Assembly: GCA_964496095.1 (NCBI GenBank)
Contig: CAZBWU010000005.1
Location: 19,704-83,703, forward strand
Direction: 5' to 3'
Length of the DNA stretch: 64,000 nt
Source: an uncultured Gammaproteobacteria bacterium
GTDB lineage: Bacteria > Patescibacteriota > Patescibacteriia > Magasanikbacterales > GWA2-37-8
The notes beneath the pieces were generated by a model. It worked only from the letters and a program-made list of their open reading frames with translations. It searched no databases and was not told the origin of the DNA. Made by a program: the position numbers and the translations under genes. The number at the start of each line of letters is the position of its first letter. Position 1 is the first letter of the stretch. Positions 7,358-64,000 of the stretch are shown in pieces.

Positions 7358-8173
7358 ATGTCTAGAAAAATGCCAACATTGTTGGAAATGTTGAAGGCCG
7401 GTGTTCATTTCGGCCATCAAAAATCACGCTGGCACCCCAAGATGGAACAGTTCATCTTTGGTGTTCGCAACGGAGTTCACATTATCGACTTAGAAAAAAC
7501 TCAAGCTCAACTTGAGAAAGCTTTGGATTATACTCGTAACTTGGCCAGCAAAGGTCAGGTAATTTTATTTGTGGGCACAAAACGTCAAGCTCGCGAAGCC
7601 ATCAAAGAAGCTGCTCTATCCTGCGAAATGCCATATTTGGTAGAACGCTGGATTGGTGGACTTCTCACAAACTTCGAAGAAGTAAAACGTCGTTTGAAGA
7701 AATATAAAAATTTGAAAGAACAATTTGCTAGCGGAGAAATTGAGAAGTATACTAAGAAAGAGCAAGTTGTCATGAAAAAACAATTAGAAAAGTTAGATAA
7801 ATATCTTATCGGTTTAACTGCTTTGGAAAGATTGCCAGACGCAGTCTATATTGCCGATATGAGAACCGAAAAAACCGCTTTGGCTGAAACAGAAAGAACT
7901 GAAGTGCCAACCGTAGCTGTTTGCGATACCAACACCAACCCAAATAAAGTTAACTACCCAATTCCTGCTAATGATGATGCGGTTAACTCTATCAAATTGA
8001 TTGCCGACCTTATGGCCGAAGCAGTCAACGAAGGTAGAAAAGAATTTGAAAAGAAAAAACTTGAGAAAGCTAAAGAAGAACCAGCTGTAAAACAAAAAGC
8101 TGCTCAAGAAAAAGAAGAAGCTCCTGCTAGTTCTACAACTAGAAGAGCTCTTAAAAAAGATACTTCTATTTAA
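7358..8173 (+). CDS. rpsB: 30S ribosomal protein S2
   Basis: MLKAGVHFGHQKSRWHPKM... conserved S2 N-terminus. Start chosen at the internal ATG (the ORF track starts at 7313). Confidence 0.9.
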   Translation: MSRKMPTLLEMLKAGVHFGHQKSRWHPKMEQFIFGVRNGVHIIDLEKTQAQLEKALDYTRNLASKGQVILFVGTKRQAREAIKEAALSCEMPYLVERWIGGLLTNFEEVKRRLKKYKNLKEQFASGEIEKYTKKEQVVMKKQLEKLDKYLIGLTALERLPDAVYIADMRTEKTALAETERTEVPTVAVCDTNTNPNKVNYPIPANDDAVNSIKLIADLMAEAVNEGRKEFEKKKLEKAKEEPAVKQKAAQEKEEAPASSTTRRALKKDTSI

Positions 8174-8279
8174 GAATTGCACGAATGTCCTGCCAGACCA
8201 CGAATTCTACAAATTTATTTGTCTGATTCATGGGGCTCAAGCCCATTCGTATTTATTCATCAAATCAAATTAAAAACAT

Positions 8280-9152
8280 ATGTCAATTACAGCCTCAGAC
8301 GTAGCCAAACTCCGATCCCTTACCGGCGCAGGTATGATGGATTGCAAAAAAGCACTGGACGAAGCTGAAGGGGATATGGAAAAGGCTGGAGAAATTTTAC
8401 GTAAAAAAGGTATTATTAAGGCTGCAAAAAGAACAGATAAGGTAGCGGCTGAAGGTACAACCTTGGTAAAAGTAAGCGGTGATACAGCCGTTGTTGTAGA
8501 AGTAAACTCCGAAACAGATTTTGTTGCTCAAAACGAAGACTTCAAGAAATTGGTTGGTGATTTTGCTAGCGCTTTACTAGCTGAAAAACCAGCGAGTGTT
8601 GAGGCAGCAATGAGTGTGGTTTTTGAAGGACAGTCTTTGCAAGATCGCCTAAATAATCTCACTGCCAAAATAGGTGAGAAAATTTCTTTGCGTCGTTTTG
8701 AAGTAGTAGAAAAAACTTCTAGTGATGCCTTTGGTTCTTACTCACACTTGGGTGGAAAAATTTCTGTTTTGATTTTACTGCAAAATACTACTGATGCAAA
8801 CTTGGCTACGGATGTGGCAATGCATGCTGCGGCCAGCAATCCAAAATATGTCAGTCGTGATGAAGTTTCTGCCGAGCTTGTTGAAAAAGAAAAAGAAATC
8901 TATACAGATCAACTTAAGCAACAAGGCAAGCCAGAAGCGGCTATTGCTAACATCTTAAAAGGTAAACTAGATAAATTTTATAGTGAAATTTGTCTATTAG
9001 AACAGCCTTTCATCAAAGATGAAGAAAAGACTATTCAAAAACTTGTTGGTGAAAGTGTGCAGGTAGCCAAGATGGTCCGATTTGAACTTGGTGATGGTAT
9101 TACCAAAGAAACAACAGATTTCGCTGCTGAAGTAGAAGCTCAATTGAAATAA
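8280..9152 (+). CDS. tsf: elongation factor Ts
   Basis: ITASDVAKLRSLTGAGMMDCKKAL UBA-like N-terminus. Sits in the classic rpsB-tsf arrangement. Confidence 0.9.
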   Translation: MSITASDVAKLRSLTGAGMMDCKKALDEAEGDMEKAGEILRKKGIIKAAKRTDKVAAEGTTLVKVSGDTAVVVEVNSETDFVAQNEDFKKLVGDFASALLAEKPASVEAAMSVVFEGQSLQDRLNNLTAKIGEKISLRRFEVVEKTSSDAFGSYSHLGGKISVLILLQNTTDANLATDVAMHAAASNPKYVSRDEVSAELVEKEKEIYTDQLKQQGKPEAAIANILKGKLDKFYSEICLLEQPFIKDEEKTIQKLVGESVQVAKMVRFELGDGITKETTDFAAEVEAQLK

Positions 9153-11028: not shown

Positions 11029-12021
11029 ATGAATATTGCTATAAATGGGTTTGGAAGGATAGGAAGGCAAGCCTTCAAAGTCGCTTTTGCCAAAAAAATT
11101 AAAATCGTCGCAATTAATGATTTGACTGATACCAAAACTTTGGCGCACTTACTCAAGTACGATACTGCTTATGGTAAGTATGAATTGCCAGTTGAATACG
11201 ATGAGAAAAATTTGATTGTCAAAGGTAAAAAAATTCCCGTCTTTGCCGAGAAAGACCCTAGTGTTTTGCCTTGGGGCAAATTAAAAGTAGATGTAGTACT
11301 AGAATGTACTGGCAGATTCACCGACAAGGACGGTGCAAGTTTGCACCTCAAAGCTGGTGCCAAAAAGGTAGTGATTAGCGCCCCAGCCAAGGGTGGCGAT
11401 GTGCCGACTTATGTCCGCGCGGTAAATTGTGCAAAGTGCAAAAAAGAAACTTCACCAGTAATCAATAATGCTTCTTGTACTACTAACAATATTGGACCAG
11501 TCATGGCTGTGCTTAATGAAAAATTCGGCATAGAAAAAGCAATGATGACCACCGCTCACGGCTATACTGCCGATCAAAATTTGCAAGACGGTCCGCATAG
11601 AGATTTGCGTCGTGCTAGAGCCGCGGCCGAAAATATTGTACCAACTACTACTGGTGCTGCTATTGCCGTTACCGAAGTTATTCCAGGATTGGTAGGTGTC
11701 TTTGATGGTTTGTCATTGCGTGTGCCAGTACCAACCGTGTCTGTATCGGATATGACAATCTTGTTGAAAAAAAATGTGACCAGAGATGAGGTAAATAAAG
11801 CGCTCGTTGACGCCTCCAAAACCGAAAGATTTAATGGAGTACTCACAACTACCAACGAACAGCTTGTCTCGTCTGATTTTATCGGTGATACTCACTCTGC
11901 TACAGTTGATTTGAGTCTGACAAATGTAGTAGGTGGAAATTTAGTCAAAGTTGTGGCATGGTATGATAATGAAACTGGTTATGCAAATAGGTTAGTTGAG
12001 ATTGCGGAGTTGTATGTTTAA
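11029..12021 (+). CDS. gap: glyceraldehyde-3-phosphate dehydrogenase
   Basis: NGFGRIGR NAD-binding motif. Catalytic ASCTTN. WYDNE C-terminus. Confidence 0.9.
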   Translation: MNIAINGFGRIGRQAFKVAFAKKIKIVAINDLTDTKTLAHLLKYDTAYGKYELPVEYDEKNLIVKGKKIPVFAEKDPSVLPWGKLKVDVVLECTGRFTDKDGASLHLKAGAKKVVISAPAKGGDVPTYVRAVNCAKCKKETSPVINNASCTTNNIGPVMAVLNEKFGIEKAMMTTAHGYTADQNLQDGPHRDLRRARAAAENIVPTTTGAAIAVTEVIPGLVGVFDGLSLRVPVPTVSVSDMTILLKKNVTRDEVNKALVDASKTERFNGVLTTTNEQLVSSDFIGDTHSATVDLSLTNVVGGNLVKVVAWYDNETGYANRLVEIAELYV

Positions 12022-16627: not shown

Positions 16628-16720
16628 TGTCATCCCGAGAGGGGTTAACACCCCCGAGGGATCTCTGTCCGGTTACCGTTGATTGAGACAGAGATTCCTC
16701 CTTCGTCGTCGGAATGACAA
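16628..16720. repeat. MITE-like palindromic repeat, copy B
   Basis: TGTCATCCCGAG-GGGGTTAACACCCCC-GAGGGATCTCTGTC ... GACAGAGATTCCTCC...GGAATGACAA. About 90% identical to copy C. Ends 13 nt before the pgk ATG. Confidence 0.75.
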
Positions 16721-16733
16721 AAACATTTTTAAG

Positions 16734-17900
16734 ATGAAATCCGTTGAACATCTTGGAAAATTAATCGGCAAAACCGTACTCTTGCGAGTTGATTTTAATG
16801 TTCCGCTCAAAGGCAAGAAAGTTTTGGATAATTATAAAATAAAAAAGAGTTTGGGCACTATCAAGTTTTTGGTTGAGCGTGGAGCAAGGGTAATTATTGT
16901 AAGTCATCTAGGTAGACCAGTCGGAGTAGATAAAAAACTGAGTCTCAAGCCGGTTGCTTTAGAACTTGGTAAATTCTTACAGAAAGATGTGCCGTTGCTG
17001 GATGTTTTGAATTTAACAAAAACAAAAATTCAAATTGAAAAATTATCACCTGCGACAGTGGTAATGTTAGAAAATATACGTTTTGTTAAAGGCGAAGAGG
17101 ATAATTCGGATAAGTTTGCCAAGGAGTTAGCTGCGTTGGCAGATATGTTCGTCTTAGACGGATTTGCGGTAGCGCATCGCCAATCTGCGTCTGTCTCAGG
17201 AGTGGCCAAATTTTTACCATCGTATGCCGGTTTACTTTTGGAAGAAGAAATCCAAGGGTTGGATAGAGTGGTCAAGAAACCAAAAAAACCACTGGTGTTA
17301 GTGCTAGGCGGAATCAAGATGGAAACAAAAATAAATGTTTTAAAAAATTTCTTAAAAATTGCCGATTACATCCTCGTGGGCGGGGGAATATTTAATACGT
17401 ATCTCTGGGCCAAGGGCTATAAAATCGGTTCGTCACTAGTTGATAAAAAATTTAAAAAAGAAATTTTGGAATACTGCGCTAAGAAAAAAATTATTCTACC
17501 AGTCGATGTAATTGTTGGTCCGGCTAACGGTAAGAAGGCTAAGGCAGTAGGAGTTAAAGATATTAAGTTAAAGCCGGGTGTTAGTATTTATGATCTCGGT
17601 CCGCAAACAATCAAACTATTTTCTAAATATATCAAAAAAGCGCAAACATTGGTGTGGAATGGGGCGATGGGAAATTTTGAACAGCACCCATACGAATATG
17701 CTACTTATTCAGTAGCGCACCTGATAGCTTCTCAGTCTAAGAGAAAAGCATTTGGAGTGGTAGGTGGAGGAGAGACAATTGAAATATTTAAAAAATTAAA
17801 TCTACTATCTGATATTGATTTGGCTTCTACTGGAGGCGGATCTATGCTAGAATATATCAGTGGAAAGAAATTACCTGGTATCGAAGCGTTAAAGAATTAA
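16734..17900 (+). CDS. pgk: phosphoglycerate kinase
   Basis: LLRVDFNVP N-terminus, GGGETI..., hinge and C-domain motifs. Start at the internal ATG after the repeat. Confidence 0.9.
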   Translation: MKSVEHLGKLIGKTVLLRVDFNVPLKGKKVLDNYKIKKSLGTIKFLVERGARVIIVSHLGRPVGVDKKLSLKPVALELGKFLQKDVPLLDVLNLTKTKIQIEKLSPATVVMLENIRFVKGEEDNSDKFAKELAALADMFVLDGFAVAHRQSASVSGVAKFLPSYAGLLLEEEIQGLDRVVKKPKKPLVLVLGGIKMETKINVLKNFLKIADYILVGGGIFNTYLWAKGYKIGSSLVDKKFKKEILEYCAKKKIILPVDVIVGPANGKKAKAVGVKDIKLKPGVSIYDLGPQTIKLFSKYIKKAQTLVWNGAMGNFEQHPYEYATYSVAHLIASQSKRKAFGVVGGGETIEIFKKLNLLSDIDLASTGGGSMLEYISGKKLPGIEALKN

Positions 17901-17965: not shown

Positions 17966-18826
17966 ATGCCTTTACCAACAGGCGGAAATAAGCCGGAACA
18001 AGCAGTCAGTAGTATGAATGTGGGAAGTAGTTGTGGAAAATGTATGGGAGCATGCCATCACCATTTTGGCAAAAAAATAATGTGGACAGTTGTGGGAATT
18101 CTTTTGGTTTATGGAGTTTTTTATGTTGGTACTTTGATTCGAAACAATGTCAAAGAGTATGATTTTATTGGCAAAGCGCCACGCATGGAACGAAGTATTA
18201 ATATAAATGGTTTTGGTAAAGTTACAGGCAATAATGATATTGCCATGACTACAATTGGTTATTCCAACACCAATAAAGATGTAGCTGTAGCTCAAGTAGA
18301 AAACAAGAAAGTAATGGATCAAATTTTCGCGGAACTGAAAAAAATTGGTGTAGATGAAAAAGATTTGCAAAGCAATTACAGTATTTATCCTGAGTATAAT
18401 TACACCCAAGAAAAAGGCCAGGAACTTAAGGGTTATAAAGTTAGTAACAGTTTGACTATCAAGATTCGCGATCTTAATAAAATTAGCAATATCTTAGGTT
18501 TGGCTGGTAAATTTGGCGCTACTGAAGTTAATGGTTTAAACTTTACTATTGATGATACTGAGAATTTGAAAGCTCAAGCTAGAGAAAAAGCTTTGGTTGA
18601 CGCTAGAGCCAAGGCAGAGGTTTTGGCTAGCAAGTTGCATGTGCGTTTAGGTGGATTGATCAGTTATTATGAGAGTGAAGTAATGCCTGATATGTATGCA
18701 GTTAAGAGCTATGACATGGCTATGGGCATGGGAGGCGCACCAATGAATGCTGGTCCGGCCGCCGTTTCTTCTGGTAGTAAAGAAGTTAGTATGAATGTCA
18801 ATGTCATGTACGAAATTTTACAGTAG
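17966..18826 (+). CDS. SIMPL/DUF541-family (YggE-like) protein with an N-terminal Cys/His-rich cytoplasmic segment and one TM helix
   Basis: AAGGAG Shine-Dalgarno 7 nt upstream. CGKCMGACHHHF cluster, then a TM helix. C-terminal region resembles SIMPL proteins (family by recall). Confidence 0.55.
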   Translation: MPLPTGGNKPEQAVSSMNVGSSCGKCMGACHHHFGKKIMWTVVGILLVYGVFYVGTLIRNNVKEYDFIGKAPRMERSININGFGKVTGNNDIAMTTIGYSNTNKDVAVAQVENKKVMDQIFAELKKIGVDEKDLQSNYSIYPEYNYTQEKGQELKGYKVSNSLTIKIRDLNKISNILGLAGKFGATEVNGLNFTIDDTENLKAQAREKALVDARAKAEVLASKLHVRLGGLISYYESEVMPDMYAVKSYDMAMGMGGAPMNAGPAAVSSGSKEVSMNVNVMYEILQ

Positions 18827-19031: not shown

Positions 19032-20279
19032 ATGCGCATAAAACAAATCATGGCGAGAGAAATTCTTGATTCCCGTGGTAATCCTACGGTAGAGGCAAAG
19101 GTAGTCTTGGAAAATGGTCTTAGTGCCATTGCCAAAGTGCCGTCAGGGGCTTCTACCGGCACGCACGAAGCCTTAGAGTTACGAGATGGCGGTAAACGTT
19201 ATGGTGGTAAAGGAGTCTTGAGAGCTGTAAAAAATGTTAATACAATTATCGCTAAATCAATTGTTGGGATGGAAGTAGAAGAGATAGAAAAAATAGATGC
19301 CAAGATGTTGTCACTTGATGGTACAAAAAATAAATCCAAACTTGGCGCTAATGCAATTTTGGCAGTATCGCTCTCTGTTGCTCGAGCTGGAGCAATGTCA
19401 GTCAAGTTGCCTTTATATAAGTATATTAGACAAGTTTATAAAATAGATGAAAAGAATTTTCGCCTGCCTGTGCTGGCTATGAATATTATCAATGGTGGCA
19501 GACACGCAGACAACGGCTTGTCTATCCAAGAGTTTATGATTTTACCAAAGCACAAACTTTTGCGAGAGCGAGTGCGTATGGGTTCGCAAATTTTTCATGC
19601 CTTGGCCGGATTGTTGAGTCAAAAAGGTTATGCGACTGGCGTCGGTGATGAGGGTGGTTTTGCGCCTGAATTATTGAATAATGAAAGAGGCTTGCAATTG
19701 ATTATGGAAGCTATTAAATTAGCCGGCTGGGTGCCAGGCAAGGATGTATTTTTAGGGCTTGATATTGCCGCCTCTGAATTTTATCGTCATGGTAATTATT
19801 ATTTCATGAATAAAAAGCAAGGTTGGTCTGCCGGTAAAATGATAGATATTTTCAAACAATGGATTAAGAAGTATCCAATTATTTCTATTGAAGATGGTTT
19901 GTCCGAGGACGATTGGGCAAATTGGCAAATTTTAACAAAAGAGTTGGGCGGTAAATTGGCTTTGGTTGGCGATGATTTATTTGTGACAAATGTCGATAGG
20001 ATTGCTCGAGGTATTAAAGAAGGTGTGGCCAATACGGTTTTAATTAAAGTTAACCAAATTGGTACACTATCTGAAACCATGGCTGCCATCAAATTGGCTC
20101 GTCAAAATAAGTATCAAATTTTTATTTCTCATCGTAGCGGTGAGACCGCCGATACTTTTATTGCCGATTTGGCGGTGGCGGTAAATTCCGAATTTATCAA
20201 AACCGGATCAATGTCCCGTTCCGAAAGAGTCGAAAAATATAACAGATTGATGGAGATAGAAGAAGAACTGGGAATGTAA
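19032..20279 (+). CDS. eno: enolase
   Basis: AREILDSRGNPTVE N-terminus. SHRSGETED-like motif (SHRSGETAD). Length 415 aa. Confidence 0.95.
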   Translation: MRIKQIMAREILDSRGNPTVEAKVVLENGLSAIAKVPSGASTGTHEALELRDGGKRYGGKGVLRAVKNVNTIIAKSIVGMEVEEIEKIDAKMLSLDGTKNKSKLGANAILAVSLSVARAGAMSVKLPLYKYIRQVYKIDEKNFRLPVLAMNIINGGRHADNGLSIQEFMILPKHKLLRERVRMGSQIFHALAGLLSQKGYATGVGDEGGFAPELLNNERGLQLIMEAIKLAGWVPGKDVFLGLDIAASEFYRHGNYYFMNKKQGWSAGKMIDIFKQWIKKYPIISIEDGLSEDDWANWQILTKELGGKLALVGDDLFVTNVDRIARGIKEGVANTVLIKVNQIGTLSETMAAIKLARQNKYQIFISHRSGETADTFIADLAVAVNSEFIKTGSMSRSERVEKYNRLMEIEEELGM

Positions 20280-20282
20280 TGT

Positions 20283-20392
20283 TGTCATCCCGAGCGAGCC
20301 CTTAAGGGCCACGAGGGATCTATCCAAGAAAAATTTTGTTAACAGAAAGATTCTCCGCGGAGTTTGTACCCTTTAGGGTGTTCAGAATGATA
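20283..20392. repeat. MITE-like palindromic repeat, copy D (divergent subfamily)
   Basis: TGTCATCCCGAGCGAGCCCTTAAGGGCCACGAGGGATCT...GGGTGTTCAGAATGATAA. Its reverse-complement-like partner is copy G. Ends 10 nt before the gpmI ATG. Confidence 0.65.
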
Positions 20393-20402
20393 ATTGTAAA
20401 AT

Positions 20403-21953
20403 ATGAATAAATTAAAAACAACTTTGCTTATAATTGTCGATGGTTGGGGAGTTGGTAATACCAAAGACCCAGGCAATCCGGTGACGCCAAAAACCGCGCC
20501 TAATTATTTTGCGTTTCTAAAAAAATATCCAAATTCAAAATTGGAAGCCAGTGGCGAAAGCGTTGGGTTGTTTAAAGGCCAAGAAGGCAATAGCGAAGCT
20601 GGGCATCTTAATTTGGGAGCCGGAAGAGTGGTAAAACAAGATGCTTTATATATCTCCGAGTCAATTAAAGACGGGTCTTTTTTTAAAAATAACGCCTTTC
20701 ATCAAGCAATTCATCATGTCAAAAAATACAAAACCTCGGTGCATCTGATGGGTTTATTATCCAATCATAACAGCGCGCATTCTACGCCGGAGCATCTTTA
20801 TGCTTTGTTAGAATTATTAAATCAAGAAAAAGTAAAAAATGTTTATTTACATTTATTTACTGATGGTCGAGACTCTGGTCAATATGAAGCGAGCAAGCAT
20901 CTTCGTTTATTAGAAAAGCATTTGCATGGTAATGAAAAAATAGCGACAATTATGGGGCGTTTCTATGGTATGGATAGAAATAAAAACTGGGATAGGACCA
21001 AGTCTGCTTATGAAGCGCTAGTTTTGGGCAAAGGATTTAAAGCTATTAGCCCGGCCGAAGTTTTTCGCAATGCCTATAATAAAAAAGACTCCGATGAGTA
21101 TATTGAGCCAAGTATTATTATTGAAAAAGGTAAACCGGTGGCAACAATAAAAAATAACGACGCTGTTTTCTTTTTCAATCTTCGCAGTGACCGCTCTCGT
21201 CAGCTTACCAAAGCTTTTATCCAGCCAAATTTTAAACAAATAAATCAAGGGGCTTTTGTGCGCGCCAAACAGCCAAAAAATATTCGTTTTGTAGCTTTGA
21301 CTGATTTTGGTCCGGATTTGCCAAATATATTGACCGCTTTTCCAAGTCGTGATATCCAAAATGGTTTAGTGCAGACATTATGTCCTAGAAAACAATTGTA
21401 TGTTGCTGAATCCGAAAAATTTGCTCACGTTACTTATTTTTTAAACGGCGGTTATGCCCAGCATTTTTGCGATGAGAATTGGGTTAAGATTGCTTCGCTT
21501 GATGTAAAAAATTATGCGACCAAGCCGGAGATGAGCGCGGACAGATTGGCCGACTATGTAAGCGTGGCTTTAGAGGCCGGACAGTATGATTTTATTGCGA
21601 TGAATTTTGCTAATATGGATATGGTTGGTCACACAGGTGATTTTTCTGCTGGACAAAAAGCAGTGACTGTTGTTGACGCAGCCATTGGTAAAATTGTAAA
21701 ATCCTTATTAAAAAATAAAGGTCAAGGTATTATTACGGCCGATCATGGCAATATTGAAGTAATGATAAATCCGGAAAGCGGAGAGCCAGACACTGAACAT
21801 TCGGTCAATCCTGTGCCATTTATTTTGATTAACAGTTTTGTCAAAACGCCAAAAAAATTACCTGACGGCAAATTGGCCAACGTGGCGCCAACAATTTTGA
21901 AAATGATGGGAATAAAACAGCCTGCTGAAATGACTGCTAAAAGTTTAATTTAA
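20403..21953 (+). CDS. gpmI: 2,3-bisphosphoglycerate-independent phosphoglycerate mutase, paralog 1
   Basis: DGWG, GNSEAGHLN (phospho-Ser), FTDGRD, ADHGN and MVGHTG motifs of the iPGM/alkaline-phosphatase superfamily. Confidence 0.85.
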   Translation: MNKLKTTLLIIVDGWGVGNTKDPGNPVTPKTAPNYFAFLKKYPNSKLEASGESVGLFKGQEGNSEAGHLNLGAGRVVKQDALYISESIKDGSFFKNNAFHQAIHHVKKYKTSVHLMGLLSNHNSAHSTPEHLYALLELLNQEKVKNVYLHLFTDGRDSGQYEASKHLRLLEKHLHGNEKIATIMGRFYGMDRNKNWDRTKSAYEALVLGKGFKAISPAEVFRNAYNKKDSDEYIEPSIIIEKGKPVATIKNNDAVFFFNLRSDRSRQLTKAFIQPNFKQINQGAFVRAKQPKNIRFVALTDFGPDLPNILTAFPSRDIQNGLVQTLCPRKQLYVAESEKFAHVTYFLNGGYAQHFCDENWVKIASLDVKNYATKPEMSADRLADYVSVALEAGQYDFIAMNFANMDMVGHTGDFSAGQKAVTVVDAAIGKIVKSLLKNKGQGIITADHGNIEVMINPESGEPDTEHSVNPVPFILINSFVKTPKKLPDGKLANVAPTILKMMGIKQPAEMTAKSLI

Positions 21954-21958
21954 AATTT

Positions 21959-23536
21959 ATGTCTTATAAACCAGTTGTGCTTGCAATTATGGATGGTTGG
22001 GGAGTAGCGCCAGACTCAGATGGTAATGCCATTACCAAAGCCAGCACACCCAACTTCACCAAGTTTGTTAAAAACTATCCCACCATGACGCTTCATGCTT
22101 CAGGCAATGAGGTGGGTTTGTTATTTGGCGAGATGGGAAACTCGGAAGTTGGACACTTAAATATTGGCGCTGGCCGAGTCTATTATCAAAGTTGTCCGAG
22201 AATTAACATGGCTATTGCTGATGGTAGCTTTTTTGAAAACTCAGCTTTGCTTTCAGCGATAGAAAAAGTAAAAAAAAATAATTCTAGTTTACATTTAGTT
22301 GGATTGATCGGTTCGGGTAATGTGCATGCTAGTAGCGATCATCTTTATGCCTTGCTGGCGTTCTGTAAAAAACAAAATTTAAGCAAAAATGTTTTTATTC
22401 ATGCTATTTTGGATGGGCGTGATGCCTTGTATAATTCCGGTCGTGATTTTGTTTTAGAATTGCAACAAAAAATGACTGAATTAAAAGTTGGTCAGATTGC
22501 ATCTTTGTCTGGTCGTTATTATGCGATGGATAGAGATAATCGTTGGGATAGAGTAGAGAAAGCCTACAGAGCCATTGCCGAGGGTAAGGCCGATAGATAT
22601 AGCGACAATCCTATCCAAGCGATAGACCAATCTTACGAGCAAAAAAATTACGATGAAGAATTTATCCCGACCGTTATTACAAATAAAGACAAGCCTCTAG
22701 CCACTATTGTTGGTCAGGATGCTGTGATTGTCTTTAACTTTCGACCAGATCGCGCGCGTGAATTAACCCAAGCTTTTTCAGTGCCGTCTTTTAATAAATT
22801 TCCTGCTACTTATTTAAAAGATTTATCGGTAGTGACGATGACCGAGTATGCCAAAGATTTGCCAGTGTCAGTCGCTTTTGCGCCGATTGTGGTGCATAAT
22901 TCTTTGGCCGAAGTTATTAGTAAGGCTGGCCTTAAACAAATGCATATTGCCGAAACTGAAAAATACGCTCACGTCACTTTTTTCTTGAATGGCACAGTCG
23001 AAGAACCTTTTGTGGGAGAAGATAGAAAACTCGTGCCATCGCCACGTGTTTCTAGTTATGACCAGCTACCGGAAATGTCTGCATTAGAAATCACCAAAGA
23101 AGCCAAAAAAATAATCGATAGCGGTAAATACGATTTTATAGTTTTAAATTTTGCTAATCCTGATATGGTAGCTCACACCGGCAATTTGACCGCGGGTATC
23201 AAGGCGTGTGAAGTGACTGATAAATGTTTGGGAGAGTTGGCAGATCATACGCTTGCGCAAAATGGTGTGATGCTTGTGACTGCCGACCATGGCAATGCCG
23301 AAGAAATGGCCAATTTGCAAACCACGGAAATGGATAAAGAACACTCAACTAATCCTGTGCCTCTTATTATTGTGGGCAAAGATTTTATGGGGCAAGCTGG
23401 GCTGTCGGGTGATGCGCCTGAAGACGACTTAAGTCTCATTCAGCCAGTGGGAGTGCTTGCAGATGTGGCACCGACAATTTTGAAGCTTTTAGATATTCCA
23501 CAGCCGGAAGATATGACTGGACAGGCTTTGATTTAG
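21959..23536 (+). CDS. gpmI: 2,3-bisphosphoglycerate-independent phosphoglycerate mutase, paralog 2 (tandem duplicate)
   Basis: The same motif set (DGWG, GNSEVGHLN, LDGRD, ADHGN, MVAHTG). Roughly 40% identical to paralog 1 by eye. Confidence 0.8.
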   Translation: MSYKPVVLAIMDGWGVAPDSDGNAITKASTPNFTKFVKNYPTMTLHASGNEVGLLFGEMGNSEVGHLNIGAGRVYYQSCPRINMAIADGSFFENSALLSAIEKVKKNNSSLHLVGLIGSGNVHASSDHLYALLAFCKKQNLSKNVFIHAILDGRDALYNSGRDFVLELQQKMTELKVGQIASLSGRYYAMDRDNRWDRVEKAYRAIAEGKADRYSDNPIQAIDQSYEQKNYDEEFIPTVITNKDKPLATIVGQDAVIVFNFRPDRARELTQAFSVPSFNKFPATYLKDLSVVTMTEYAKDLPVSVAFAPIVVHNSLAEVISKAGLKQMHIAETEKYAHVTFFLNGTVEEPFVGEDRKLVPSPRVSSYDQLPEMSALEITKEAKKIIDSGKYDFIVLNFANPDMVAHTGNLTAGIKACEVTDKCLGELADHTLAQNGVMLVTADHGNAEEMANLQTTEMDKEHSTNPVPLIIVGKDFMGQAGLSGDAPEDDLSLIQPVGVLADVAPTILKLLDIPQPEDMTGQALI

Positions 23537-24681
23537 AGGGAAGCGCCTAATGTTTTTTTAATTTTTCCAATAACTTCAGTTTCAACTTCTTTAATATTTT
23601 TTCCACTTATTACAAAAGAAGCAGTTTTTTTGTTGCCTTCTGGTTGGTAGCCTTGAAGAAGTGCTTTGGCATCATGCTGTTTGCCGGCGCATAAAAATCC
23701 ATGGATTTTATTTTCTCCATGAGTATTTTCGTAGAGTAATAGTACGATTTTTGCTTCCGGTGAATTTTGGATAAGTTCATCAGTAAGATCTTTCAGTTCC
23801 TCTTCGGTAGCGCCAGCTCTGGCAAAATCTTCTCTAGTAATTGTTGTCCAAACGAGTCCTAGCTGTGGATCGTTTTCAATATGAGTCAGCGCTGTGCCCC
23901 AAATACGCATCGAAGCAACCGATTTGGTGCGGTATAAATTTTTGACGATTCTTTCTCTGTCTGCGCCAAGCGTTATTAGTTTGCTGGCAGTGGCGAGTGT
24001 GGTAGGGCTGACATTAGCAGTTTTGAAACTTTGAGTTTGGCTAATCATGCCGGTAAGTAAGAATGTGGCGATGTCAGCATCAATATCAGGTTCGGAAATT
24101 TTTACCATTGCCTTGTAGATGATTTCGGAAATAGAAGTGGCGTTAAGTTCCACAAAATTTACTTGGCCAAAATGTTCGTTGGCTGGGTGGCTATCAAAAT
24201 TGATAACCGGAACTTTGTAAAACAAGTCGGTGTTATTAAAAAAAACATTGCCCAAAGATTCTAAATCTTGAGCGTTAACGGTAATAATCAAATCGTATTT
24301 GAGACCAGACTGAGCCGTGCGGAGTTCATTCTTGGTGATAGTACCTTGCTTGGGAGTGAGGTAAATTGAAAGCCAGTTGTCTTTGATGTCATAACTAAGT
24401 GTATCAATTTTGATATTACTGACATCAACTTTGAGAATGAATTTTTGTAAGTGAGAAAGTTGTGGTTGGATTTCTTCTAGATTTTTGAGGAAGCGGAGAT
24501 TTTTTGGCACAACAAAATTATCAGCAACGACATCAACTTGCTTATGTTTTTTTTCCAGGAATTTCTTCCAGGCCATGGCTCCACAAACTGAATCTGCGTT
24601 TTGGTTGGCGCTTAGTACCAATAAAACATGCCGACTCTGTTCCAAGAGATGGTTGAGTTGTTCGGTTTCGGTAAATGACAT
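23533..24681 (-). CDS. DHH/DHHA1-family phosphoesterase-like protein with degenerate catalytic motifs
   Basis: Collinear with the NrnA at 55195-56157. Motif I is NQNADSV instead of HQNPDGD, motif III is DSHP instead of DHH, and the GGGH region is degenerate. Confidence 0.5.
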   Translation of the reverse strand: MSFTETEQLNHLLEQSRHVLLVLSANQNADSVCGAMAWKKFLEKKHKQVDVVADNFVVPKNLRFLKNLEEIQPQLSHLQKFILKVDVSNIKIDTLSYDIKDNWLSIYLTPKQGTITKNELRTAQSGLKYDLIITVNAQDLESLGNVFFNNTDLFYKVPVINFDSHPANEHFGQVNFVELNATSISEIIYKAMVKISEPDIDADIATFLLTGMISQTQSFKTANVSPTTLATASKLITLGADRERIVKNLYRTKSVASMRIWGTALTHIENDPQLGLVWTTITREDFARAGATEEELKDLTDELIQNSPEAKIVLLLYENTHGENKIHGFLCAGKQHDAKALLQGYQPEGNKKTASFVISGKNIKEVETEVIGKIKKTLGASL

Positions 24682-24857
24682 GAATTTTGACTTGTTCTGT
24701 TAGACAGCTAAAAAATCTGAATAACAGCCTATATTAGCAGTATTTTAAAGGTTTGTCAAATATAGATAGGCAGCCATTTAAAGATGATATTTTCGTCTAA
24801 AAACTCGAACGCCCCGGCTTGTGGCCGGGGCTTCGAGCGTTGTCGTTGCCCCTTCAA

Positions 24858-25283
24858 CTACGGCGGCGGGGATGACCACAGGTCATCCCCAGTTATCGGG
24901 TCCTTCTCCCCGCTCGGGAAGTAGAGGATCTTGCCTGACTTCTCCTCCCGACCACGCCTGGAAGGGAGGGGGCGGAAGATTTCTTGCCGCCCGTGGAGCC
25001 ACTTGCCCGACGGGCAAAGTAGCCCAACGGCAGGACCATTGCAGTTCCCCCGTCGGCTTGTGTCCTCCTTCCCGTCAGGCCCGACCCACTCGCTTCTGCA
25101 GTTGCAGTAGCAGGTGGAGGGCGGGCCGCAGGGCGGCGACAGTACCGGCTCGTGGTCGCGGTGCTTGAAGACGACGATCTCGGTGGGGTTGGCAAGGGCC
25201 TTCTCCTTCGTGGTGTGGCAGTCGTGGACCACCACGCCGACAGTCAGAAGAATAGCCCCGACGATGGCGATGATTTCTTTCAT
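24858..25283 (-). CDS. small Cys-rich protein with an N-terminal signal anchor, encoded in a GC-rich island
   Basis: Only frame in the island with an ATG, a hydrophobic N-terminus (MKEIIAIVGAILLTVGVVV) and a downstream hairpin terminator (GCCCCGGCTTGTGGCCGGGGC at 24808-24832). Frame choice is uncertain because high GC yields long ORFs in several frames. Confidence 0.35.
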   Translation of the reverse strand: MKEIIAIVGAILLTVGVVVHDCHTTKEKALANPTEIVVFKHRDHEPVLSPPCGPPSTCYCNCRSEWVGPDGKEDTSRRGNCNGPAVGLLCPSGKWLHGRQEIFRPLPSRRGREEKSGKILYFPSGEKDPITGDDLWSSPPP

Positions 25284-25664
25284 TGTATCTAGCCTTCCCG
25301 CCTATTGGTGGAGGTGTGAGACACCAACAGGCGTATCAAAAATCGTTAAAATTTCTAATACGCATGTTGATGTCTTTCGCTACCTTTTAACAACGCTCTT
25401 TTGAAATGGGTATCTGCCTATTATATTAGGCTTATTACCACTTTCTCAATCGCCTATATGCCGTAAGCATAAAGACGATTGTTAAAAACAGTAAAATTTG
25501 TTAGTTAATTCAAGACTTTATCATCTTATACGGGATTTGTCAATCTTCTCCTTTTCTGTTATTATTTATCTAAATCTATAACATTTATAGGGGCCTTGCC
25601 CATATAATCTCATTTGCTCGAAAATGTCTCGACAAGTCAGACATTTTACTCACTCATTTCGATT

Positions 25665-28259
25665 ATGCACGAACTACCAAAGGTTTACGAACCTCACAAT
25701 TACGAAGATGAAATCTATAAAAAATGGGAAGAATCAGGGCTTTTTAACCCTGATGTTTGTGTTGAGAAAGGTTTTACCAAAAGTGACGCTGAGCCATTTT
25801 CTATTGTCTTGCCTCCGCCAAACGTCACAGGTACTTTGCATATGGGTCATGCCGCCATGCTGGCCATTGAAGACGTGATGGTGCGCTACCATCGGATGAA
25901 AGGCGACAGGACGCTCTGGGTGCCTGGTACTGACCATGCGGCTATTGCAACTCAGTCTAAGGTAGAAAAATTGGTCATGGAGAAAGAAGGTAAAAGTAAA
26001 TATGATTTGGGCAGGTCCGAATTTCTCAAACGAGTAGAAAAATTTGCTCAGGAAAGTCATGACACAATAGTTAATCAATGTAAAAAAATGGGTGCTTCTT
26101 TGGATTGGAGTCGAGAAGCCTATACGCTGGATGAAAAAAGAAATTTGGCTGTCCGCACCGTGTTTAAAAAAATGTATGATGACGGACTGATTTATCGTGG
26201 ACACAGAATTGTAAACTGGGATCCAAAAGGTCAGACTGTAATTTCGGATGACGAATTAGTTTATGAAGAAAGAAAAGCAAAATTTTATACTTTTAAGTAT
26301 GGTCCTTTTGAAATAGGCACTGCTAGACCGGAAACAAAATTTGGCGATAAGTATGTGGTCATGCATCCAGAGGACAAACGTTATAAAAAATGGAAGCACA
26401 TGCAAAAAATAACTGTCGAGTGGATTAACGGTCCGATTGAGGCGACTGTTATTAAAGACCCAATGATTGATATGGAATTTGGGACGGGTGTGATGACCAT
26501 TACTCCTTGGCATTCCCATGAAGATTTTGCCTTGGCTGAAAAATATAAATTAGACAAAGAACAAATTATTGATAAATCTGGAAAGTTGCTTGAAGTCGCG
26601 CAAGAATTTGCGGGGATGGAAATCGGCAAAGCGCGGGACAAGATAGTACAAAAATTAAACGCCAAAGGCCTGCTTGTCTCAGTTGATGAAAATTATGTAA
26701 ATCGGATTGCGACGGCTGAAAGAACTGGTGGAGTTATTGAGCCACAGATAATGGAACAATGGTTTATAAATGTAAATAAGCCGATTGAAGCTCGGGATGG
26801 AAAAACTTTGAAAGAGTTGATGCAAGATGTGGTAAAAAATAAACAAATAGAAATAGTTCCTGATCGATTTGAAAAAACTTATTTTCATTGGATAGATAAT
26901 TTGCGAGATTGGTGTATTAGCCGCCAGATTTGGTTTGGGCATCGGATTCCGGTTTGGTATAAAGGTGAAGAGATTCATGCTGGTATTGAACCACCAACTG
27001 GTGAGGGTTGGACTCAAGACTCAGACACTCTAGATACTTGGTTTAGTGCTGGACTTTGGACATTCTCTACTTTAGGTTATCCCGATCTTAACGCCGAAGA
27101 TTTGAAAAAGTACCATCCAACTTCTGTGCTTGAAACCGGTTATGATATTTTATTTTTCTGGGTAGCGAGAATGATTCTAATGACTACTTACACTCTTGGT
27201 GAAGTGCCGTTTAAGACGGTTTACTTGCACGGACTTGTACGTGATGAGCAGGGGAGAAAGATGAGCAAGTCTTTGGATAATATTATCAATCCGCTTGATA
27301 TGATTGCTAAGTATGGCACAGATGCGACGCGTTTGTCGTTGCTCTTGGGCAATACGCCGGGCAATGATATGAAATTATCCGAAGAAAAAATTGCCGGCTT
27401 TAGAAACTTTACCAATAAGCTTTGGAATATTTCGAGGTTTATTTTATCTCAGGTAGATGATAAAGAGCCAGTTATGACAATGGCCGATTCTTGGATTGTA
27501 GGCAGGATGGCGAAGTCGTTCGGAGAGTTCAGAGAAAGCATGGAAAAGAATCAGTTTTCAGTCGCAGGAGAAAGCCTACGTGATTTTACCTGGAATGATT
27601 TAGCGGATTGGTATTTGGAAATTTCCAAGATTGAAGGAAATAAGTCAGGAGTTTTAATGCTTATTTTAGATTTTATTTTAAAAGCATGGCATCCGTTTAT
27701 GCCTTTTGTGACTGAGGCTATCTGGCAAGAAATACATGAGGGTGGAAAAATGCTCATGGTAGAAAATTTTAAAATTTCAGAAGGCCTTTTGGAAGCATCT
27801 CCTAAAAAAACCTCAGTAAAAAACGAAGAAACAGCTTGGTTAGATTTCGAAGTTGTGCGAAACGCGGTAGTTGCTATCAGATCTTTGCGCGCCGAATATA
27901 AAATAGAACCTGTTAAAAAAATCACGGTAAAAATTAATTTTGGAAAACAGGAGAGCATAATAAGAGAAAACGAACATATAATTAAAGGATTAGCTCGTTT
28001 AGAAAAAATAGAATTTGTAGAGTCTGGCGCAGAAATTTCTTTGGATTTGACTGGTGCAATAGATGTAGAAAAAGAAAAACCAAGGCTAGAAAAAGAAATA
28101 GCTGAAATTAAAAAATATGTTTCTGGTTTGGAAAATAAATTATCCAATCAAGAATTTGTCACCAATGCCCCTCCAGCAGTAGTGGAAAAAGAAAAGGCAA
28201 AGTTGAGTGAAGCACAGGGGAAGTTGGAAAAGTTACAAGAACAATTAAATAAGATGTAA
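25665..28259 (+). CDS. valS: valyl-tRNA synthetase
   Basis: PPPNVTGTLHMGHA (HIGH) and KMSKS. Editing domain and C-terminal coiled coil. Start at the internal ATG. Confidence 0.9.
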   Translation: MHELPKVYEPHNYEDEIYKKWEESGLFNPDVCVEKGFTKSDAEPFSIVLPPPNVTGTLHMGHAAMLAIEDVMVRYHRMKGDRTLWVPGTDHAAIATQSKVEKLVMEKEGKSKYDLGRSEFLKRVEKFAQESHDTIVNQCKKMGASLDWSREAYTLDEKRNLAVRTVFKKMYDDGLIYRGHRIVNWDPKGQTVISDDELVYEERKAKFYTFKYGPFEIGTARPETKFGDKYVVMHPEDKRYKKWKHMQKITVEWINGPIEATVIKDPMIDMEFGTGVMTITPWHSHEDFALAEKYKLDKEQIIDKSGKLLEVAQEFAGMEIGKARDKIVQKLNAKGLLVSVDENYVNRIATAERTGGVIEPQIMEQWFINVNKPIEARDGKTLKELMQDVVKNKQIEIVPDRFEKTYFHWIDNLRDWCISRQIWFGHRIPVWYKGEEIHAGIEPPTGEGWTQDSDTLDTWFSAGLWTFSTLGYPDLNAEDLKKYHPTSVLETGYDILFFWVARMILMTTYTLGEVPFKTVYLHGLVRDEQGRKMSKSLDNIINPLDMIAKYGTDATRLSLLLGNTPGNDMKLSEEKIAGFRNFTNKLWNISRFILSQVDDKEPVMTMADSWIVGRMAKSFGEFRESMEKNQFSVAGESLRDFTWNDLADWYLEISKIEGNKSGVLMLILDFILKAWHPFMPFVTEAIWQEIHEGGKMLMVENFKISEGLLEASPKKTSVKNEETAWLDFEVVRNAVVAIRSLRAEYKIEPVKKITVKINFGKQESIIRENEHIIKGLARLEKIEFVESGAEISLDLTGAIDVEKEKPRLEKEIAEIKKYVSGLENKLSNQEFVTNAPPAVVEKEKAKLSEAQGKLEKLQEQLNKM

Positions 28260-53260: not shown

Positions 53261-53900
53261 GAAAAAAATCCACCCCCACCTCAGTAAAGAGATGGGGGTG
53301 GTTTAATTTTATTGGAGGAAAGAAACTTCCCTCCTGAACCGCACCCAAGAAGATGTATTAAAGATGAAAACGAGCCGAAGCCTGTTTGTCCCTCTAACAC
53401 ATCTCCATGCTTGTCGTGGATACGGGATGATACATGTTAGTCTTACTAGTAACTCTATCATGCACTACCCGTTTCCAGACTTGCTAATGTGCGCTTGTGT
53501 CTAATTATTAAAGTATTGTATTTTTGCCTCGTAGTAGTACCGTTTTAGGGGTTCATAACTCTTGTGGCGACTTTGCTTTTTAGACAACTGCGAATTATAC
53601 TATAAATTAATAAATTTGTCAAGGGTATGGAGGGGATAAGACCATTTTTTTGGCTAATTTAAGCGGAAATAGTACTAAAGAATATTATTGACAAAGCTTA
53701 ATTTTTATGACATACTCTGTTATTCGATAATTAAGCGAATAAATAGCTCTTTAAAATTCGATATGGTTCTTCGGTGCGAATAGAGCTTCGTTTATCATTT
53801 GAATATGGTAGTAGGAGTTCTATTCGCACTATAATTACAATCTCTCCTCGGGTATGCCGAAGAGGGATCTCACCCGAATTGAAAAACTGGAGGAGGTCGT

Positions 53901-54224
53901 ATGAGCAACAAGGAAGGGCCGCCTAAAGGGTGGAAAGAGGGTGTCTTCGAGCAAATCGATGCCGAGGAGGAAGATGATGCGCTGGATCGATGGGACAGAG
54001 GCCTGCCGCTTACAGCAGCACAAGAGGCCATTGTCCAGCGGTATAGGACTATGGTGCACAGGATGAGAAGTCTCCCCCCTGTGGAACCGCCTGTTGGATG
54101 GGAGGCGCGCGCTCGCGCCCGGTTCCGCAACGCTCGTGCCCGCGAGCGCCGCCGCATGCTGGCCGTGTGCGCTGTTCTCGTCTTCATCGCCGTTGCGGCG
54201 GCATTCGTGGTGGTCGGCCGTTAG
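53901..54224 (+). CDS. small tail-anchored membrane protein encoded in a GC-rich island
   Basis: GGAGGAGG Shine-Dalgarno 4 nt upstream. Acidic N-terminal domain, an RARARFRNARARERRR basic stretch, then C-terminal TM MLAVCAVLVFIAVAAAFVVVG. GC-rich codon usage unlike neighbouring genes. Confidence 0.4.
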   Translation: MSNKEGPPKGWKEGVFEQIDAEEEDDALDRWDRGLPLTAAQEAIVQRYRTMVHRMRSLPPVEPPVGWEARARARFRNARARERRRMLAVCAVLVFIAVAAAFVVVGR

Positions 54225-54377
54225 ATCGTCGTCACGACGGGAATCGGAGAATCATGTCCACGCTGGGCCACCACGGTCGTGAGATCGAGCTGGCCTGCGT
54301 CCGAAGAGGCGTTGCACTTGCTCAGTGCGCGCCTCACTCCGAATATTTTTTGTACTTTGTAAAAAAGATTGAGGAAT

Positions 54378-54410
54378 AAAAAACTATCCTTCTGTGGATA
54401 GTTTTTTATT
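54378..54410. terminator. bidirectional rho-independent terminator between the GC island and clpP
   Basis: AAAAAACTATCC-TTCTGT-GGATAGTTTTTT. Confidence 0.6.
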
Positions 54411-54423
54411 TTGTAGTTTGTTT

Positions 54424-55023
54424 TTATTTTTCAATCACCTTATCAATCAATCCGTAAGCCAAAGCTTCCTCGGCGCTCATAAAGTTGTCTCTATCAGTAT
54501 CTTTTTCTACCTGCTCAAGCTTTTTGCCAGAATGTTTGGACATTATTTTATTTAAATTATCTTTTATTTTTAAGATTCTTTCCGCGCGGATTTTAATATC
54601 ACTCGCTTGTCCTTCCATTCCACCCATTACTTGGTGGATCATAATTTCGGCATTAGGCAAAGCAAAACGTTTTCCTTTAGCGCCGGCATTAAGTAGAAAC
54701 GCGCCCATGCTAGCAGCCATACCAATACAAATAGTACTGACATCTGGTTTGATATATTGCATGGTGTCATATATTGCCATACCAGCAGTTACTGATCCGC
54801 CAGGGGAGTTGATGTACAACTTGATATCTTTTTCTGGGTTTTGGTTTTCCAAGAATAACAATTGGGCGATAATAACATTGGCGACATTATCATCTACTTG
54901 TGTACCCAAAAATATAATTCGATCTTGGAGTAAGCGAGAATAAATATCATAAGCGCGTTCACCGAAGGTAGTTTTTTCGATGACGGTTGGGATGAGGTAT
55001 TGGGATTTGATTTCTTCTTTCAT
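54424..55023 (-). CDS. clpP: ATP-dependent Clp protease proteolytic subunit
   Basis: [15 protein letters not shown]. Catalytic Ser in GMAASMG. His in MIHQ. 199 aa. Confidence 0.9.
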
Positions 55024-62196: not shown

Positions 62197-62583
62197 GTAA
62201 AAGCTTAAAAAACTAATAAAACTCCCGCAAAAAAATTTCATTAAAAATTAATATTCTCGGGCAAGTCCGCTGTGGAAACTGTCTGCCTCATTTTGAGGGA
62301 AAGAAAAAAGAGCAATCAAGATTTGATTTCTCTTTTTTCTTTCTAACCTGTCATTAGGTAAGGTCAGGTAATAGATTGAAAAAAGTATTTCGTTCCGCTA
62401 CGGTGGAAAACGAAAAAGTACATTGACAACACAAATGTGACAAAGACCACAAAAAAAGTCTATCCGAAAAAACTCGGGTTATTCCGAGTCTAAATAATAA
62501 ATAAATCCAAAAATGATAACTTGTTCATCAGCCCTTACAGCTTCGGCTGTGTAGGGTGAACAAAAATCAAATCTCTTTTTTTA

Positions 62584-64000
<1,417 letters not shown>

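Follow-up and report, generated by a model that had tools for sequence, protein, structure and literature searches.

Two adjacent genes, designated here c1 and c2, were analysed in a 64,000-nucleotide stretch of contig CAZBWU010000005.1 (hereafter "the window"; its overall G+C content is 38%). Both code for full-length cofactor-independent phosphoglycerate mutases (iPGMs), which form an ancient tandem pair, and one of them, c1, belongs to a separate subfamily recognizable by its own set of substitutions. The host is Candidatus Magasanikbacteria, a groundwater bacterium with a small genome, and c1 has its closest relatives among proteins of Magasanikbacteria metagenome-assembled genomes. The reading that we favour and hold to be fairly probable is that both genes give active iPGM isozymes with partitioned properties, retained as a conserved pair. 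In such a pair c2 would be the ordinary iPGM of the Candidate Phyla Radiation (CPR), and c1 would be an old isozyme, also under constraint, in which the substrate loop and the domain-interface region are remodelled around an unchanged first shell of the active site.

The proteins align with each other over their full length (41% identity, E = 5e-136), and in both of them the domains iPGM_N (PF06415) and Metalloenzyme (PF01676) of Pfam were found, i.e. the two-domain iPGM architecture is present. The equivalog model of the bacterial iPGM, GpmI (TIGR01307, curated cut-off 330.65 bits), scored 540.5 bits with c1 and 624.4 bits with c2, the lower of these values being 210 bits above the cut-off. 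Scores with a narrower iPGM model, NF003897, were 433 and 522 bits, respectively, i.e. below its cut-off of 862. End-to-end alignments were obtained with the G. stearothermophilus iPGM of known structure, 1EJJ (E = 3.7e-126 for c1 and 2.1e-152 for c2), and both proteins already carry the iPGM annotation in databases. An earlier note on this DNA, made from the sequence alone, had described two full-length divergent iPGM paralogs separated by 5 nt, and the open reading frames (ORFs), Pfam domains, TIGR01307 scores and 1EJJ alignments all agree with that description. All motifs which it quoted are also in place: GNSEAGH in c1 and GNSEVGH in c2, DGRD, ADHGN, MVGHTG and MVAHTG, LLSNHNSAHS and LIGSGNVHAS. 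These matches far exceed what chance would produce. Thus every feature of the TIGR01307 family that can be tested on sequence was found in c1 and c2, which assigns them to a known kind of enzyme, with c1 as a subfamily of it; nothing observed so far indicates a new enzyme.

Two other families were considered and rejected. The model of archaeal-type iPGM (ApgM, TIGR00306) gave only 29.2 bits with c1 and 41.5 bits with c2 against a cut-off of 320. Phosphopentomutase-like activity had been proposed in the same note as an example of a changed function. DeoB phosphopentomutase does share with c1 and c2 the Metalloenzyme core and the phospho-enzyme chemistry of the alkaline-phosphatase superfamily, but it has another cap domain, and the two proteins are not its members. 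Two DeoB models, NF003766 and NF009049 (cut-offs 256 and 254 bits), scored 39.2 and 35.3 bits with c1, 23.4 and 23.0 bits with c2, and their matches covered the C-terminal core only. The same follows from the AlphaFold2 model, which was built for c1 alone (mean predicted local distance difference test score, pLDDT, 91.9; predicted template modelling score, pTM, 0.85). The top Foldseek matches of this model are substrate-bound closed iPGMs 1EJJ and 1O98, with template modelling (TM) scores of 0.86–0.88 and 42–43% identity in the structural alignment, while TM scores of only 0.31–0.38 were obtained with solved phosphopentomutases. The suggestion of a phosphopentomutase-like activity was, therefore, abandoned.

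Active site residues are designated below in the numbering of 1EJJ; a minority of their roles was confirmed from papers. We take D12, S62, D403, H407, D444, H445 and H462 to be the metal ligands, and H66, H123, R153, D154, R185, R191, R261, R264 and K336 presumably bind phosphoglycerate. All 16 positions (7 for metals and 9 for the substrate) are invariant in 30 orthologues of c1 and 28 orthologues of c2, as well as in 114 deeper c1-type proteins collected by full-library phmmer and profile searches. With GpmI/GpmM of G. stearothermophilus (TIGR01307; 1EJJ and 1O98), besides the iPGM_N domain inserted in an alkaline-phosphatase-like Metalloenzyme core, c1 and c2 share the Ser nucleophile, seven metal ligands and substrate-binding residues. 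The earlier note had pointed to deviations of both copies in the SDGGVHSH block and considered this block as Mn-binding. The deviation is real, and in c1 it even characterizes the whole subfamily. However, the block belongs to the transferase domain rather than to the metal site, and the one functional residue known in it is His123 contacting the substrate, which is kept in both copies. Deviation of the metal site itself is ruled out by the invariance of all seven ligands and His123, and since the first-shell ligands are identical in c1 and c2, the different metal use suggested on this basis cannot be read from a motif of the SDGGVHSH type. Ordinary iPGMs are themselves variable at D119 and H125, and the variant of c2, GSGNVHAS, resembles GNGYVHAS of locus L076 and GRGTVHSS of locus L051, where the iPGM is a related CPR enzyme without another copy beside it. 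The literature confirmed the role of Lys336 (PMC3145672), as well as serine as the nucleophile and the metal-binding triads of His and Asp (PMC5382265, PMC8113725).

Several differences of c1 from other iPGMs flank these invariant residues. The differences were counted in 130 alignment columns, each at least 85% conserved in other iPGMs: c1 deviates in 13 of them and c2 in 9. The change V64A falls between S62 and H66. The loop preceding H123 has acquired one residue after position 119, followed by substitutions G120N, G121S and V122A directly before this histidine. Two more changes are Y298F and E349A, and another two, T334S and Y337F, which flank K336, are confined to the Magasanik clade. The core signature recurs in proteins that are just 43–56% identical to c1. 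All 114 deeper c1-type proteins have the loop insertion and F298, and all of them lack E349, which is conserved in 96% of other iPGMs; S121 is present in 113 sequences, A64 in 112, A or P at position 122 also in 112, and P126 in 110. Where their sources are named, the labels are Buchananbacteria, Falkowbacteria and "Parcubacteria/Patescibacteria group". Judged by these substitutions, the deviating loop of c1 defines a distinct subfamily, in which the second shell and the loop are changed and the metal ligands remain untouched. Unlike GpmI/GpmM, its members combine the loop insertion, G121S/V122A, V64A, F298 and the loss of E349, whereas the differences of c2 from the same reference (G121N, H125S) are ordinary lineage variation only.

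The genomic position of c1 is conserved. In each of the 32 c1-type loci (L001-L032) a tblastn match to enolase immediately precedes c1, and the same search found enolase in the flanks of none of 48 one-copy iPGM loci (L033-L080). In 30 of the 32 loci, among them that of a Kerfeldbacteria genome (L031), the next gene is c2, either complete or cut off by the end of the contig; the contig of L030 stops behind c1. Locus L029 has downstream of its c1-type iPGM an ORF of 269 aa (7577..8386), which matches only residues 7–53 and 314–513 of c2. By this alignment it is an iPGM consisting of the phosphatase domain only, with the transferase domain cleanly deleted, and it could be either a decaying copy or a free-standing phosphatase. 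Among deeper lineages the order PGK, SIMPL, enolase, none to two genes, c1-type iPGM, none or one gene and the second iPGM was found in L085, L086/L087, L088, L090, L091 and the P0124 contig. PGK is located upstream of enolase and the c1-type gene in L085, L086, L088, L090, L091 and the P0124 contig, and SIMPL occupies the same position in L081, L086, L087, L090, L091 and the P0124 contig. As a whole, the order PGK-SIMPL-eno-c1-c2 is shared by loci that bear the labels Magasanik-, Kerfeld-, Buchanan- and Falkowbacteria. In L089 enolase and the c1-type gene are followed by a PfkB kinase and ADP-forming acetyl-CoA synthetase, and the second iPGM is not adjacent; in L029 and L089 the c1-type protein is, therefore, the sole complete iPGM next to enolase at the locus.

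In the neighbour-joining (NJ) tree the Magasanik c1 clade grouped with L029 and the c1-like proteins of Kerfeldbacteria with 100% support, the Magasanik c2 clade also had 100% support, and c1 and c2 never appeared as sisters in 100 bootstrap replicates. In a broader NJ tree the c1-type clade was monophyletic in 78% of replicates, and c2 partners fell among one-copy iPGMs of CPR, in a grouping that was not bootstrapped as a named clade. The two trees placed the c1-type clade differently with respect to the remaining bacteria and therefore do not choose between ancient duplication and ancient transfer. On the evidence of these trees the pair is ancient; it would have originated long ago, either by duplication or by acquisition, and have been co-inherited since. 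In line with the earlier note, the duplication is not a recent one: besides the non-sister position of c1 and c2 in all bootstraps, the pair is kept across several labelled candidate phyla, and the identity of c1 and c2 inside each genome is only 38–45%. This identity is steady and thus gives no sign of gene conversion.

Both genes are maintained by selection. In comparison with locus L081, a 98%-identical relative, the ratio of nonsynonymous to synonymous substitutions (dN/dS) was 0.10 for c1, 0.075 for c2 and 0.057 for enolase. Over 378 genome pairs c1 diverged only 1.13 times faster than c2, so that their rates are similar, and the distances of the two proteins correlated with r = 0.92. By these values c1 and c2 are both under purifying selection and co-inherited. 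Pseudogenization was rejected on the basis of the same dN/dS and because the downstream copy of L029, with its deleted domain, is the only ORF that is not intact at any of the loci. The pair might also be explained by simple redundancy, i.e. two interchangeable copies providing a higher flux, as would suit identical first-shell active sites and a location in the same putative operon. Such an explanation seems highly improbable: the two proteins have diverged to 38–45% identity in every genome without a sign of gene conversion, they are non-sister in trees and bear fixed subfamily-specific differences, and both are kept in loci of several labelled candidate phyla, while persistence of this kind is unexpected in reduced genomes. 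The fact that purifying selection has kept both copies for so long suggests that properties were partitioned between them and that they are not redundant, and subfunctionalization of c1 and c2, put forward already in the earlier note, is plausible.

If both copies are isozymes, their functioning can be envisaged as follows. Most likely c1 and c2 are catalytically competent metal-dependent cofactor-independent phosphoglycerate mutases, and probably they make up one transcription unit with enolase, supplying it with 2-phosphoglycerate produced from 3-phosphoglycerate. By analogy with the iPGM family, the metal-activated serine (Ser64 in c1 and Ser62 in c2) would accept the phosphate, the cluster of Arg, His and Asp residues in the transferase domain would grip and re-orient the glycerate, and the phosphate would then be handed back to its other hydroxyl. 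The isozymes may differ in the metal they prefer, in their optimal pH, in kinetics or in the way domain closure is regulated.

Several points weigh against this interpretation. Catalysis by c1-type proteins is deduced from sequence, synteny and the structural model, and of the residue roles used in this deduction only those of Lys336 and the Ser nucleophile were confirmed from papers. Several changes of c1 flank catalytic residues (64 near S62 and H66, 120–122 before H123, 334 and 337 around K336), and, being conserved throughout the subfamily, they would also fit a shift in specificity. Finally, iPGM paralogs are rare. In the survey of Foster et al. (2010) more than one bacterial-type iPGM was found in 4 of 702 bacterial genomes (A. 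ferrooxidans, S. cellulosum, D. reducens and P. putida F1), of which two had gained the extra gene by lateral transfer, one had duplicated it recently (90% similarity) and in one it was a pseudogene (PMC2964296). Paralogs of phosphoglycerate mutases occur mostly in large genomes (PMC2964296), and their retention in the small genome of a CPR bacterium needs a reason. Those duplicates resemble the present case in the presence of several bacterial-type iPGMs per genome, but they are isolated, whereas c1 and c2 are adjacent, ancient and co-inherited across labelled candidate phyla in a reduced genome. Two tandem copies also distinguish this locus from the typical arrangement of GpmI/GpmM genes.

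A rival explanation of the pair is neofunctionalization. The c1-type protein would then preserve the phosphoserine and bimetal chemistry, but act on some other phospho-acid or mainly as a phosphatase, leaving c2 as the sole glycolytic mutase; C4/C5 phospho-aldonates and compounds of the phosphoserine or phospholactate type are candidate substrates. The location of subfamily substitutions fits this idea: they cluster by catalytic and substrate residues and mostly introduce smaller side chains or lengthen the loop (V64A, V122A/P, T334S, Y337F and the one-residue insertion before H123), the otherwise conserved E349 is lost in every deeper c1-type protein, and the c1-specific loop (block of residues 121–130) is the least confidently predicted part of the core, with pLDDT 78. 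However, all residues which we take to contact 3- or 2-phosphoglycerate, including five arginines, are invariant, it is c1 and not c2 that constantly adjoins enolase, the c1-type protein is the sole complete iPGM at the L029 and L089 loci, and c1 surpasses the equivalog cut-off by a wide margin (210 bits). We consider neofunctionalization rather unlikely, and c1 is favoured as a true mutase because its substrate arginines are invariant, because it always neighbours enolase and because no other complete iPGM is present at these two loci. In a broader form, the same line of thought would make the c1-type proteins, which occur in several CPR candidate phyla, a functionally separate enzyme derived from iPGM: it would either act on another phospho-acid, as its mutase or its phosphatase, or be an obligate partner that alters the working of c2 and enolase. 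This has a low, though appreciable, probability, and if it is true, the minimal carbon metabolism of Patescibacteria contains an unrecognized step.

Partnership deserves consideration on its own, since it would account for the tight, translationally coupled tandem retention of the two genes. In this case c1 and c2 would form a heteromer or a coupled pair, where one protein tunes the other or both channel the product to enolase. The spacing of 5 nt in the window, overlaps of the iPGM genes in L088 (5916 versus 5919) and L090 (6589 versus 6614), the invariant order of c1 and then c2, and their divergence in step (the correlation given above) are all compatible with this. On the other hand, in L085 another gene separates the c1-type and the second iPGM, in L029 the partner is degraded and in L089 it is not adjacent. 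Active sites are complete in both proteins and neither looks like a regulatory pseudoenzyme, while nematode iPGM was described as a hinge-linked monomer (PMC8113725). An obligate partnership is, therefore, regarded as very unlikely, and two active isozymes remain the preferred reading.

Retention of tandem iPGMs across several labelled candidate phyla with reduced genomes is mildly surprising. CPR bacteria (Patescibacteria) have very small genomes and patchy glycolysis, and the tandem iPGM pair goes unmentioned in a study of glycolysis across the CPR (PMC7304191); among the papers searched, none linked Magasanikbacteria and phosphoglycerate mutase. The c1-type proteins represent a cleanly defined, uncharacterized subfamily with a diagnostic signature. 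Annotators and metabolic reconstructions call both genes "gpmI", and this signature allows one to tell c1-type proteins and c2 apart. If the enzymes differ in metal, pH dependence or substrate, they would inform how these organisms run lower glycolysis; if both are ordinary mutases, the pair is an evolutionary footnote.

Genes surrounding the pair and the elements of the intergenic spacer are listed in Table 1.

Table 1. Genes of the lower-glycolysis cluster, neighbouring features and spacer elements in the window
Feature	Position	Strand	Comment
GAPDH	11029-12021	+	lower-glycolysis cluster
PGK (phosphoglycerate kinase)	16683..17900	+	Pfam PGK, 401 bits; first gene of the conserved lower-glycolysis cluster
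SIMPL/DUF541 protein	17966..18826	+	Pfam SIMPL, 163 bits; between PGK and enolase
Enolase	19032..20279	+	ORF; immediately upstream of c1
Spacer eno-c1	20280..20402	+	123 nt; short GC-rich palindromes/hairpins, read from sequence
Spacer palindrome/hairpin GCCCTTAAGGGC	20298-20309
Spacer palindrome/hairpin CTCCGCGGAG	20353-20362
Spacer palindrome/hairpin ACCC-TTTA-GGGT	20368-20379
c1, iPGM of the divergent c1-type subfamily	20403..21953	+	516 aa; LLSNHNSAHS loop, GNSEAGH
c2, iPGM of ordinary CPR type	21959..23536	+	525 aa; GSGNVHAS, GNSEVGH
DHH-family gene, convergent	23533-24681	-

The c1-c2 spacer is represented by "aattt" between the TAA stop codon of c1 and the ATG codon of c2. Palindromes in the spacer between enolase and c1 could serve as candidate attenuator, terminator or protein-binding sites; a consensus scan reported neither promoters nor terminators in this spacer, and overall the number of its sites was not above that in shuffled sequence. 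Domains Enolase_N and Enolase_C are annotated on the enolase of L081. The SIMPL/DUF541 gene, a family without an obvious link to glycolysis, is kept between PGK and enolase across several CPR lineages. In some deeper lineages the cluster continues into ADP-forming acetyl-CoA synthetase (L088, 8485..10524; L089, 6573..9640), which ties the iPGM cluster to substrate-level ATP formation, and in L089 the place of the second iPGM is taken by a sugar kinase of the PfkB family. Several loci with full synteny and 73–85% identity (L001, L002, L007-L012 and others) are titled "uncultured Gammaproteobacteria bacterium" or "Candidatus Udaeobacter sp."; these titles of metagenome-assembled genomes are probably taxonomic mislabels. 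A bacterial 16S rRNA gene (62577-64000, model positions 1–1446 of 1533) is cut off by the 3′ boundary of the window.

Two patches of the window differ sharply in composition from the 38% G+C genome. The first (24800-25290, ~63% G+C) contains on the minus strand an ORF (24858..25283) for a Cys/Pro/Gly-rich protein of 141 aa with a hydrophobic N-terminus, followed by a GC hairpin at ~24803-24836. Similarity to L081 ends at ~24830, the ORF has no protein match at any locus, and a search of Rfam with the region 24600-25700 gave no match at E ≤ 1. This patch seems to be either an insertion of foreign composition confined to the strain or a chimera produced by the assembly. The second patch (53800-54400, 63–65% G+C) contains on the plus strand an ORF of 107 aa (53901..54224), whose C-terminus is hydrophobic and which is closely followed by a ClpP-like gene on the minus strand (54424..55023); this patch may be a foreign insert of the same kind.

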